64,000 nucleotides of DNA from Escherichia coli (lineage in GTDB: Bacteria; Pseudomonadota; Gammaproteobacteria; Enterobacterales; Enterobacteriaceae), in assembly GCF_003334315.1 (NCBI RefSeq), contig NZ_QOWR01000003.1. One strand, given 5' to 3'. The notes under the pieces are model-generated. The model had not been told where the DNA came from. It made no database searches and saw nothing but the letters and a program-made list of their open reading frames with translations. Shown here in pieces: positions 1 through 3,606 of this stretch; positions within the stretch are counted from its first letter, which is position 1; the number at the start of each line of letters is the position of its first letter. The translations under genes were made by a program, and so were the position numbers.

Positions 1-77
1 ACACCTGCCGAACCCTGGACAATGGGACCGCCATACTGAGTCATATCTCCCTGACGCGCCGCTGGTTTTCCGCTCAT
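1..77 (-). CDS. rhsD: Rhs-family protein, 5' end only (runs off window start)
   Basis: Minus-strand ATG at 75-77 followed by codons for MSGKPAARQGDMTQYGGPIVQGSAGV, the conserved Rhs N-terminus; lies directly downstream of ybbP as in E. coli K-12. Confidence 0.7.
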   Translation of the reverse strand, partial: MSGKPAARQGDMTQYGGPIVQGSAG

Positions 78-508
78 ATAAAGTGCCCTTTTAGTTATTG
101 TTCATATCCCTGTGTTAGCAACAAAAAAAAAATAAAATGACACACAAGACCAGCTAATGTATTTATATATTTTTCACATAAACTTATTTGTTCTCAATCA
201 ACAACAACTGTTATTACAGGTCACTTTCAATATTTTATTAAACTAACATTTTTAGCACAGATGAATTCATCATCAACAAATTCACTATATGGATAATATC
301 CATTCAACGCATATGATTTATGATTTTATTAGTCTGAGTTATTTTTGTAGGGCTATATTTAAAATCAATAAACTCCACCGATTCAGATTAATATCAGCAA
401 TAGAAAGATAGGAAATCACCAATTCAATAACATCATCAATGAAACATATTGTAGAATTAATTTAAACAAGGCGTTCCATTCAACCAGAACGCCCCTTATT
501 TACTCTCA

Positions 509-2923
509 TCACCCCGCAAACTGCCTGAACAGCGCCTTACCCTTAACCAGTCGCGCACCCAGCCAGCCGCCGAAAAGCGACAGCAGCAGCGCTCCGCTGC
601 ACGGCAGAACAATCCACAATCGCCAGTCTGGCTCCCACGGAAAATCAAACACTTTCGCCTGCAACACTGCCAGCGCCGTTTCCGCACCAATTGCGGCCAC
701 CAGGCCGGAAACAAACCCAAGCATGGCGAACTCACACCACAACGTGGTACGCAGCAGTTTTTTCCCCGCACCGAGTGTGCGCCACACCACCAGCTCCTGA
801 TGACGCTGACGCATTCCCACCTGCACCTGTGCCAGCAACAGCAACATACCGCAGGCGGTGACCAGTACCACCATCACTTCCAGCGTCCGACTTACCTGCT
901 CCAGCACCTGACCGACCTGTTTTAAAATCGCGCCAATATCTAACAGGCTAATGGTCGGGAACTGGCGGTTGAGTTGTGTCAACATGCCGTTGCCATTCTC
1001 CCAGCGGAAACTGGTAAGCCAGCTCTGCGGTTGCCCGTCTAATGCCCCTTCAGGGAAAATAAAATAGAAATTAGGCCGCAGACTTTCCCAGTCCACTTTG
1101 CGCAGGCTGGTCACTTTAGCGCGGAACTCCTGGGTATCGCCCATAAAAGTCACGGTATCACCGAGGGCAACGTTTAAGCGTTTCGCCAGCCCCTCTTCCA
1201 TCGACACTTCATCGGCTTTTGGCGGCCAGTTACCGGCGACAATCGGATTATGATCGGGCCGCGTATTTTGCCAGGTAAGATTGAGTTCGCGGTTAAGCGC
1301 CTCATCTTCATTACCTTCTGTCGGCTTATCGTTAATCGCCGTCAGCCGCGCCCGCACCACCGGATAAAACGATTCCGGGACTATCTGATGTTCCGCGAGG
1401 AACGCTTTTAGCGGTGCTACCTGTTCTGTGGCGATGTTAATTAAAAAGTAGTTCGGGCTTTCTGGAGGTAGCTGCTGCTGCCAGCGGTCGAGCAGATCGC
1501 CACGCAACACCAGCAGCAGTGCCAGCAGCATAAAGGAGAGCGAAAATGCCGAAAGCTGACTTAACGTTGACCACGGCTGACGTAACAGGCGGCTAACCGC
1601 CAGGCGCAGAGGCAGCGATTTCAGCGTCATGCGGCGAAGTACATTCAGCAGCATCCAGCCCAGCACACCGCACAGCAAAGCCAGTACTACCGCGCCCGCC
1701 AGCACCGCCCAAAGCAGCATGCTGCCACCCATTAATCCGGCGAGCAGCAGCACAACCACCACACTGACAATCGGCAGATAAAACTTCAGCGGCCAGACGT
1801 TCGCTACCACATCATTACGTAATACGCGTAAAGGCTGCGTTGCCAGCAACAAGCGATATGGTCGTAGCCCCACCAGCAGCGAGATGACCGTCATGGTGCC
1901 AAGCGCCCACAGCCACGGCCAGAGGCTGGCTGGCGGTAGTGCAGCAGGCAGAACGGGCTTGAGCAGCACCATCAACACGTTTTCGAACAACAGGCCTATG
2001 GCCCCACCGGTAACGGCTGAAAGCGTCAGCACCATCAACCACTGACCGACGATTAGCTTACGCAGTTGCGCTCGCCCTGCCCCCAGCGTTTTGAGGATCG
2101 CCACCAGATCGTAGCGACTGCGACAGTAATGATTCATCGCTACCGCCACCGCTGCCACTGCCAGCAGCAAGGTCAGAAGCGCCGAAAGCAGCAGGAACTG
2201 TTGCGAGCGTTCCATCGATCGCCCCAGCGCGCCTTCGTCCTGTTCCAGACCGTACCAGCGTTGTTCGGGTTTAAGCTGAGGTAACAACCATTTCTCATAG
2301 CCGTCGAGCTGGTTCTCGTTGCCGCCGAATTTATAACGCCAGGTGACCCGACTCCCCGGCTGCACGGCTCCGGTTTTATCGACATCCGCCAGATTCATCA
2401 TCAGACGCGGAGCCATCTGGAAGGGGTTAAAACCGGAATCCGGTTCCTGAATCACTTCTCCGGCAATCCGCAAGGTGGCATCGCCCACGTCAATGGTGTC
2501 GCCCGTTTTCAGGTTAAGCAGTGCCATCAGGCGTGGGGCCAGCAATACGCTGCCCGCCTGCGGTTTCAGGCCAGGGGGATTAGTTTGCAGATCGCCATAC
2601 ATCGGGTAGATATCATCCACCGCTTTGACGTTCGCCAGCTGCGGTGTGTCGCCTGCAAAGGTCATTGTGGCGAAAGTCAGCTGCTTGCCGACTTTCAGGC
2701 CGCGCTTTTGCGCTTCCTCCAGCCACGCTTGCGGCACTTCGCGTGAACTGCGCAACGCCCGATCGCCCGCCATAAACTCACGGCTTTGCTGGCTTAAGCC
2801 CTTCTCCATGCGATCGCTGATATTGCCCAGCGCCAGCACGCAGGCCACCGCCAGGCTTAGCGCCAGCCAGACAATTAATAGCGACGGCGAACGCCATTCG
2901 CGCCAGAACCAACGTGCAATCAT
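509..2923 (-). CDS. ybbP: ABC transporter permease (FtsX-like)
   Basis: ORF track 804 aa, multi-TM protein; 4-nt overlap with upstream ybbA; length matches YbbP. Confidence 0.9.
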   Translation of the reverse strand: MIARWFWREWRSPSLLIVWLALSLAVACVLALGNISDRMEKGLSQQSREFMAGDRALRSSREVPQAWLEEAQKRGLKVGKQLTFATMTFAGDTPQLANVKAVDDIYPMYGDLQTNPPGLKPQAGSVLLAPRLMALLNLKTGDTIDVGDATLRIAGEVIQEPDSGFNPFQMAPRLMMNLADVDKTGAVQPGSRVTWRYKFGGNENQLDGYEKWLLPQLKPEQRWYGLEQDEGALGRSMERSQQFLLLSALLTLLLAVAAVAVAMNHYCRSRYDLVAILKTLGAGRAQLRKLIVGQWLMVLTLSAVTGGAIGLLFENVLMVLLKPVLPAALPPASLWPWLWALGTMTVISLLVGLRPYRLLLATQPLRVLRNDVVANVWPLKFYLPIVSVVVVLLLAGLMGGSMLLWAVLAGAVVLALLCGVLGWMLLNVLRRMTLKSLPLRLAVSRLLRQPWSTLSQLSAFSLSFMLLALLLVLRGDLLDRWQQQLPPESPNYFLINIATEQVAPLKAFLAEHQIVPESFYPVVRARLTAINDKPTEGNEDEALNRELNLTWQNTRPDHNPIVAGNWPPKADEVSMEEGLAKRLNVALGDTVTFMGDTQEFRAKVTSLRKVDWESLRPNFYFIFPEGALDGQPQSWLTSFRWENGNGMLTQLNRQFPTISLLDIGAILKQVGQVLEQVSRTLEVMVVLVTACGMLLLLAQVQVGMRQRHQELVVWRTLGAGKKLLRTTLWCEFAMLGFVSGLVAAIGAETALAVLQAKVFDFPWEPDWRLWIVLPCSGALLLSLFGGWLGARLVKGKALFRQFAG

Positions 2924-3606
2924 GCTTCCTCCTGCAACTGCCCGTTCACCAGCCGTAAGCAGCGGTCGCAGCGTGCCGCCAGTTGCAGGTCGTGGGTCAC
3001 CATAATCAACGTGGTGCCATGTTCACGGTTGAGGGAAAACAGCAGGTCGGCAATTTTATCGCCCGTCTGGCGGTCAAGGTTGCCGGTGGGTTCGTCGGCA
3101 AACAGCACATCAGGTCGACCATTAAAGGCTCGTGCCAGCGCCACTCGTTGCTGTTCACCGCCGGAAAGCTGTGCCGGAAGATGATCCAGACGTTTACCCA
3201 GCCCTAACTGTTCGAGCAACGCTTTCGCCCCGTTACGACTTTCCGCGCTACTCTCACCGCGCAGCAGAGCCGGAAGCTCGACGTTTTCCAGCGCGTTAAG
3301 GGTAGGAATTAACATAAATGACTGAAAAACAAAGCCGACGTGCTTCGCGCGCAACTTTGCCCGCGCTTCTTCGTCCATATTATGTAGCGGTTGTCCCACC
3401 AGACTCACTTCGCCACTGCTGCCGTCATCAAGCCCGGCGAGGATCGCCAGCAAGGTTGACTTACCCGATCCCGACTCGCCCACCAGTGCGATGGTCTCGC
3501 CACGTTTGACAACCAGCTCAACTCCGGTGAGGATGGAGAGTTCATGCTCCCCCTGACCGACGGACTTCTTAAGATGATGAACTTCAACAATGTTTTCCGC
3601 TGGCAT
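2920..3606 (-). CDS. ybbA: ABC transporter ATP-binding protein
   Basis: 228 aa; Walker A GESGSGKST and ABC signature LSGGEQQR visible in translation. Confidence 0.9.
   Translation of the reverse strand: MPAENIVEVHHLKKSVGQGEHELSILTGVELVVKRGETIALVGESGSGKSTLLAILAGLDDGSSGEVSLVGQPLHNMDEEARAKLRAKHVGFVFQSFMLIPTLNALENVELPALLRGESSAESRNGAKALLEQLGLGKRLDHLPAQLSGGEQQRVALARAFNGRPDVLFADEPTGNLDRQTGDKIADLLFSLNREHGTTLIMVTHDLQLAARCDRCLRLVNGQLQEEA

Follow-up and report, generated by a model that had tools for sequence, protein, structure and literature searches.

The start of rhsD beside ybbP in Escherichia coli and its AT-rich, probably H-NS-silenced leader

The stretch of DNA analyzed here (the window, 64,000 nt from Escherichia coli) begins inside a gene that is read on the minus strand. 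The ATG at positions 77-75 opens MSGKPAARQGDMTQYGGPIVQGSAG (translation), which comprises 25 full codons and is followed by GT at the edge of the window. As GTN encodes Val for any third base, codon 26 can be read as well, and the 26 codons counted in an earlier reading of the letters alone (the sequence-only reading) are a fair description of what is in view. The 25 visible residues all match residues 1-25 of K-12 RhsD (b0497), and likewise those of RhsD from strain 14EC007, and the conserved Rhs N-terminal region (MSGKPAARQGD...) is present among them. In K-12, the first 40 residues of RhsA, RhsB and RhsC are the same as those of RhsD except at position 18, which is Ser in these three proteins and Pro in the visible peptide. 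Position also separates rhsD from its paralogues: ybbP adjoins, 431 nt away from the rhsD start, as is the case at the K-12 rhsD locus. Taking into account both the peptide and the ybbP neighbor, the gene is therefore rhsD specifically, and not another of the K-12 rhs genes. That the minus strand opens a conserved Rhs N-terminus at position 77 had been claimed from the letters, and both the identity with K-12 and 14EC007 RhsD and the ybbP neighbor bear this out. The features of the locus, together with three RNA features found elsewhere in the window, are collected in Table 1. To place on it the equivalent of a promoter island mapped in K-12, coordinates were converted with an offset between U00096.2 and U00096.3 that we take to be 776 bp.

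Table 1. Positions of the features considered, numbered along the window
Feature	Positions	Strand	Remarks
rhsD 5' end	1..77	minus	codons 1-25 and two bases of codon 26 (MSGKPAARQGDMTQYGGPIVQGSAG[V])
ybbP-rhsD intergenic leader	78..508	minus	431 nt at 28.3% GC; belongs to the RhsD accessory element
Shine-Dalgarno-like AAGGG	86..90	minus	read from the sequence, 8 nt before the ATG
Homopolymer T-run	123..132	minus	alignment of 7 strains
Approximate equivalent of promoter island 522099_304	161..464		converted via the K-12 locus and the 776-bp offset; limits approximate
Sigma-70 promoter candidate TTAATA-17-TGTAAT, towards rhsD	213..241	minus	listed for the spacer in PMC3946193
Terminator-like hairpin with T-rich tail	468..495	minus	scan match, 11-pair stem, directly after the ybbP stop codon
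ybbP (ABC transporter permease)	509..2923	minus	804-aa ORF; core gene bounding the variable segment
sroB sRNA	15951-16034	minus	expected K-12 RNA feature, intact
dnaX frameshift element	29818-29882	minus	expected K-12 RNA feature, intact
4.5S (SRP) RNA	46686-46782	minus	expected K-12 RNA feature, intact

When positions 1-1200 of the window were compared by megablast with complete E. coli genomes, 5,421 of 5,426 gave a match, and 2,880 of the 5,426 cover the full 1,200-nt query at an identity of at least 98%. The full-length matches listed are all annotated as ybbP and as rhsD or RHS element core protein, and every listed match that covers the 804-aa ORF carries the ybbP annotation. With so many complete E. 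coli genomes (2,880) sharing this 1,200-nt segment, the feature is not a chance pattern. Relative to the K-12 MG1655 map of the locus, the window is shown in reverse complement; in K-12, the gene order is ybbA, ybbP, a 430-nt gap, rhsD (b0497), ybbC, ylbH, ybbD, ylbI, ylbG and selU/mnmH. Window 1-77 is the start of rhsD, an Rhs polymorphic-toxin gene that lies beside ybbP in about half of E. coli strains. The observation of an rhsD start with an AT-rich leader is thus a correct one, and the feature is already known.

For the part of the gene that lies beyond position 1 of the window, RhsD of strain 14EC007 was used as a stand-in. This strain shows 99.9% identity over window 1-1200, with an identical leader, and its rhsD ORF runs on to 1,426 aa. 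The protein scores 2,790 bits against the NCBIfam model NF041261 'RHS element core protein' (cut-off 2,000) over residues 1-1258, and it includes DUF6531 (Pfam) at residues 46-123, YD repeats, and Rhs_assc_core at residues 1181-1258. In Rhs core proteins, a YD-repeat shell and core domain of this kind end in the motif PxxxxDPxGL. For a PAAR domain at the RhsD N-terminus there is no significant match: the letters P-A-A-R are present, but the partial matches to Pfam PAAR_motif (PF05488) stay below threshold both at residues 2-20 (E 0.079) and at residues 9-29 (E 0.74).

The cargo carried behind position 1 had been described as not assessable from the window, with respect to toxin and immunity genes alike, and the comparison of close relatives agrees with this, as they differ. 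In K-12 and in 14EC007, rhsD is intact, ends in a DUF4329 C-terminal tip (Pfam) and is followed by ybbC; in 14EC007 the gene order up to mnmH is as in K-12, with rhsD, ybbC, an orphan Rhs tip and ylbG. O157 carries a different RhsD tip. Several E. coli genomes are identical to the window over 25 kb (window 1-25000), and in one of them, ET490 (L011, 5964-11019), rhsD is split by IS1A, the DUF4329 portion is a separate fragment, and an IS3 lies near ylbG. As ET490 rhsD is split in this way, an intact rhsD beyond the window edge cannot be assumed.

The DNA between the two genes is strikingly poor in GC when compared with the whole window (28.3% in 78-508 vs 52.2% across the 64 kb). No 431-nt stretch of the 64 kb is lower in GC than this one, the runner-up being 42018-42448 with 33.9%, and 100-nt windows within the block range from 23 to 32%. 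The claim that positions 78-508 are very AT-rich therefore stands, and the end of the block at 508 is exact, the ybbP stop codon occupying positions 509-511. It had further been stated that the block lacks any ORF, and indeed there is no credible one. The longest ATG/GTG/TTG ORF inside it is of 40 aa; each reading frame holds between 7 and 17 stops, and the longest stop-free run in any frame is of 51 codons. The small ORFs, of 21-40 aa, were submitted to an NCBIfam search, and none of the six matches a family at E<=1. An Rfam search of window 1-3000 gave no match at E<=1, and when the minus strand of window 210-60, presumed to be the 5' UTR, was folded as RNA, the result was no better than for shuffled sequences (z = 0.23). 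No annotation lies under the block in the 40 RefSeq records listed, and a repeat search of the block returned only short two-copy matches, as expected in AT-rich DNA.

Reading the leader on its minus strand, from ybbP towards rhsD, the first element is the terminator-like hairpin. It is retained in an IS1 deletion derivative without rhsD, in which 34 nt are left beside ybbP, and genomes of the Hcp-ET type and of the short-spacer type (see below) have other sequences at its position. The promoter candidate comes next: TTAATA-17-TGTAAT occurs exactly once in the window, at 241-213, with 0.01 occurrences expected by chance, and lies about 135 nt before the rhsD ATG. It is unchanged in the seven strains aligned, which belong to different lineages and share 99% identity across the leader region. 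The AAGGG at 90-86 is likewise unchanged in the seven, and from its sequence and spacing would be a modest Shine-Dalgarno element. The T-run is the main length polymorphism of the leader: it is T10 in the window, T9 in K-12, T8 in REL606, O157, 99E2750 and Combat11I9, and T7 in WP4-W18-ESBL-09. One strain has, in addition, a single-base deletion elsewhere.

We then considered how the leader is distributed. In sensitive blastn with window 78-500 as query, 2,907 of the 5,426 complete E. coli genomes (~53%) carry the block, at 97.9-100% identity and, with few exceptions, in one copy per genome; across the E. coli genomes the search found neither a second family of block copies nor similarity to other rhs leaders. 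In genomes lacking rhsD, similarity to the window ends at the ybbP stop codon (window ~499-508), and each of the alternative states has its own sequence directly after that stop. As every state departs from the ybbP stop onwards, the whole 431-nt block is therefore DNA of the Rhs element. The variable segment thus begins at the stop codon of ybbP and extends to the vicinity of mnmH, and the leader is not core-genome spacer. That the leader, including the hairpin that follows ybbP, is accessory-element DNA may be a useful by-product of the analysis. The sequence-only reading mentioned neither that the AT-rich block is itself accessory Rhs DNA nor that it has been published as a promoter island bound by H-NS.

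Between ybbP and mnmH, the 5,426 complete E. coli genomes show no fewer than three alleles: the RhsD element, a short spacer and an Hcp-ET cassette. The RhsD allele is found in about 2,880-2,907 genomes, the short spacer in about 1,321 (each covering at least 80% of that spacer) and the Hcp-ET allele in 574, counts that leave about 600 of the 5,426 outside the three. The short-spacer allele (L002) is of about 710 nt, contains REP-like sequences and shows no similarity to the block. It holds a 27-aa ORF, MKTFLDKVLIVLKALIALLELIRQFIE (L002 7706-7789), to which RefSeq gives the name 'damage-inducible type I toxin DinQ'. The canonical dinQ locus is far away, and the ORF may encode a type I toxin paralogous to DinQ. 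The Hcp-ET allele (L003) encodes a 668-aa extended Hcp/TssD together with four DUF2931 genes. It starts at exactly the same site, from the ybbP stop, and constitutes a T6SS-associated toxin with putative immunity genes; being unrelated to RhsD in sequence and built on another delivery scaffold, it is an alternative allele and not a relative. A fourth state (L005) is an IS1-mediated deletion in which only the 34-nt hairpin beside ybbP is left. The three-way polymorphism of the ybbP-mnmH junction, with Rhs, Hcp-ET and a short spacer holding a DinQ-like ORF, may be a further useful by-product.

The block was also searched for outside these chromosomes. No match was found in 50,697 phage records. 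In a plasmid collection there are four matches, all of them rated non-mobilizable, of which two, at 1.3 and 4.8 Mb, have the size of chromosomes and another, of 19 kb, comes from Klebsiella oxytoca and shows 99.8% identity; these were rejected as a sign of mobility of the block, and are read instead as mislabelled or contaminating chromosomal DNA. Neither a 23-mer from the block center nor a 21-mer across the ATG has an exact match in 100,044 species-representative genomes, in a scan that would overlook relatives with a divergence of 10% or above, and in which the E. coli representative evidently lacks this allele. By exact matching, the block is therefore not seen outside E. coli. The element itself is, in 14EC007, a mosaic with respect to GC content: the leader is at about 28% (the value is 37% for the 400-nt bin over it, into which ybbP extends), whereas the core of rhsD is at 60-67%; values of 31-35% are seen for the tip, ybbC and the orphan remnants.

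Three lineages were compared for divergence, namely K-12 together with the window, O157, and 99E2750. Between them 0.7-1.6% of the leader differs, whereas third codon positions of ybbP differ by 4.0-6.0%, a difference with Fisher p values from 1.3e-6 to 0.026 that is based on only 3-7 leader substitutions per pair. Counting all sites, ybbP differs by 1.5-2.5% and the first 3 kb of rhsD by about 5%. The least diverged bin is the promoter-proximal half of the leader (0.5-0.9%); of the flanking bins, the 3' end of ybbP differs by 1.2-3.2% and the first 300 nt of rhsD by 2.7-3.3%. A recent recombination tract shared by the lineages was rejected as the cause of the low leader divergence, as more diverged DNA lies on both flanks. 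One reading of these values is that purifying selection may act on a regulatory region, and conservation above that of neighboring synonymous sites would be in keeping with a regulatory role that is maintained. The low divergence could also be explained, at least in part, if AT-rich DNA mutates less. As conservation of the leader exceeds that of the synonymous sites on both of its sides, one might go further and regard it as a selectively maintained silencing or control module of the Rhs element, not passive AT-rich DNA, in which the T7-T10 run could tune expression between lineages; we look on this extended proposal as an unlikely one.

The region has been described previously in K-12. The spacer ybbP(+)/rhsD(+), 522099_304, is one of 78 K-12 'promoter islands' (Panyukov and Ozoline 2013, PMC3661553, Table 1), a class of AT-rich regions in which potential start points are numerous and to which RNA polymerase binds, with little transcript as the outcome. 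The same study marks the ybbP/rhsD island as an H-NS target in every ChIP study that it compares, and ties it to predicted foreign or horizontally acquired genes (PMC3661553). The spacer between ybbP and rhsD was also obtained as a genomic-SELEX site of the RpoD holoenzyme in vitro and holds an H-NS site (Shimada et al. 2014, PMC3946193); the best promoter given for it is the TTAATA-17-TGTAAT referred to above (PMC3946193). As the leader in the window is one T-run base away from that of K-12, the K-12 binding results should transfer, and it would be expected to be occupied by H-NS, to bind RNA polymerase and to yield little transcript. The block shows traits of the class, namely its low GC content (28.3% vs 52.2%) and a presence/absence polymorphism whose boundary is the stop codon of ybbP.

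As far as simple scans of the sequence alone can show, base composition accounts for how densely promoter-like sites occur. A strict promoter scan of the block gave 2 sites vs 1.8 expected. In a relaxed count, promoter-like sites amount to 18.6 per kb in the block vs 4.8 in the window, with hexamers 4-6 times denser than the window average, but Markov-1 sequences matched in composition have about 15 such sites per block vs 8 observed; these densities come from simple scans, the criterion that defines promoter islands as a class being the PlatProm score. The high-affinity H-NS motif TCGATAAATT, searched with two mismatches allowed, has only two weak matches in the block, a result that is uninformative.

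Other rhs systems were used for comparison. The K-12 RhsD element (rhsD b0497, ybbC b0498 and the remnants ylbH/ybbD) has the same ybbP neighbor and the same 25 N-terminal residues, and in the visible part its sole difference from the window is the T9 of its leader, which thereby lies one base apart from the T10 leader of the window. The K-12 genes rhsA, rhsB and rhsC stand alone like rhsD, each behind an AT-rich leader and without a vgrG immediately before it; their leaders differ from that of rhsD in being shorter (202-242 nt) and less AT-rich (35-37% GC), and have no detectable similarity to it. Directly ahead of the ATG, the leaders of rhsA and rhsC are nearly identical over a long stretch (…GGCTTTCTTATAAATCTGTAGGGTTTCGCCTGTCAGCAGACAAATAACCCGATAAAACAAGGATGAG…), and those of rhsB and rhsD are each different. 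Leaders thus seem to define sub-lineages of Rhs elements. With respect to regulation, the ybbP/rhsD spacer is itself on the lists both of promoter islands and of H-NS-overlapping RpoD SELEX sites (PMC3661553, PMC3946193). In the Salmonella SPI-6 rhs/T6SS locus, as summarized in PMC7043789, the Rhs toxin gene is silenced by H-NS. The Salmonella rhs is part of a T6SS island, and internal promoters drive the expression of its toxin tips, whereas rhsD stands alone between housekeeping genes.

Taking these data together, we are confident that the best explanation of the locus is an rhsD start preceded, in 78-508, by its foreign, AT-rich, probably H-NS-silenced leader and control region. The leader came, and is inherited, together with the RhsD accessory element, which takes the place of other cargo between ybbP and mnmH. 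Transcription of ybbP would end at the hairpin at 495-468. About 300 nt of very AT-rich DNA would follow, to which H-NS, and also RNA polymerase, could bind; the weak sigma-70 candidate at 241-213 would drive rhsD, through a presumed 5' UTR that is unstructured, with a variable T-run and a modest Shine-Dalgarno sequence. Xenogeneic silencing is the most likely working of the leader: H-NS would coat it and keep rhsD almost silent under laboratory conditions, the AT-rich toxin tip would probably be coated as well, and rhsD expression would need relief of H-NS. Silencing is, from the K-12 data, the function that we infer for the leader, and this fits the report on Salmonella SPI-6 rhs (PMC7043789). 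Beyond correct annotation the locus matters little, as the window edge cuts a textbook rhsD and the block is a published H-NS-bound promoter island.

The block might instead be filler without function, decayed DNA of the donor, with rhsD either not expressed from it at all or expressed by read-through from ybbAP. Its promoter-like sites are no denser than composition predicts, it holds no ORF, no Rfam family and no unusual fold, and K-12 promoter islands give very low transcript output (PMC3661553), all of which such filler would share. But the block is less diverged than the synonymous sites of ybbP and the first 300 nt of rhsD, a terminator-like hairpin stands between ybbP and the block, and in K-12 the RNA polymerase holoenzyme and H-NS both bind the spacer (PMC3661553, PMC3946193). 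We regard filler as improbable. Better conservation than that of neutral sites nearby could also be expected if the block hid a small gene, be it for a small protein, a type I toxin or an sRNA; ORFs of 21-40 aa do exist in it, and the short-spacer allele has an annotated type I toxin (27-aa, DinQ-type) at the same site. A hidden gene is nevertheless very improbable: at E<=1 neither do the six ORFs match an NCBIfam family nor does the block match Rfam, shuffled sequences fold as well as the leader RNA (z = 0.23), RefSeq annotates nothing there in the 40 records listed, and the block has no similarity to the short-spacer allele in which the DinQ-type ORF lies.

The T-run at 123-132 offers another way of controlling rhsD, namely a slipped-strand switch that would tune or phase-vary its expression. 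Such a switch would account for a run that varies from T7 to T10 among strains and is the main indel of the leader, but the run comes after the one promoter candidate that has support and before the Shine-Dalgarno sequence. As it sits between the two, its length alters neither the promoter spacer nor the reading frame. Furthermore, run lengths appear fixed by lineage (T9 in K-12; T8 in REL606, O157, 99E2750 and Combat11I9), and no promoter is recognized by eye beside the run. A switch of this kind is hardly credible. Silencing of an acquired leader by H-NS accordingly stays as the preferred reading of the block.

Some observations were made elsewhere in the 64-kb window. The stretches with the next-lowest GC content, 42018-42448 (33.9%) and 42775-43205 (38.1%), are found in the spacer of acrB and tomB and within tomB-hha, respectively; for the tomB/acrB spacer, too, an RpoD site that overlaps with H-NS has been listed (PMC3946193). 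The sroB sRNA, the dnaX frameshift element and the 4.5S RNA are in place (Table 1). The Rfam family naRNA4 (RF02564) matches above its gathering score at 14576-14653 and at 21714-21791, and the former match scores on both strands, as expected for palindromic repeats of the REP/BIME type.
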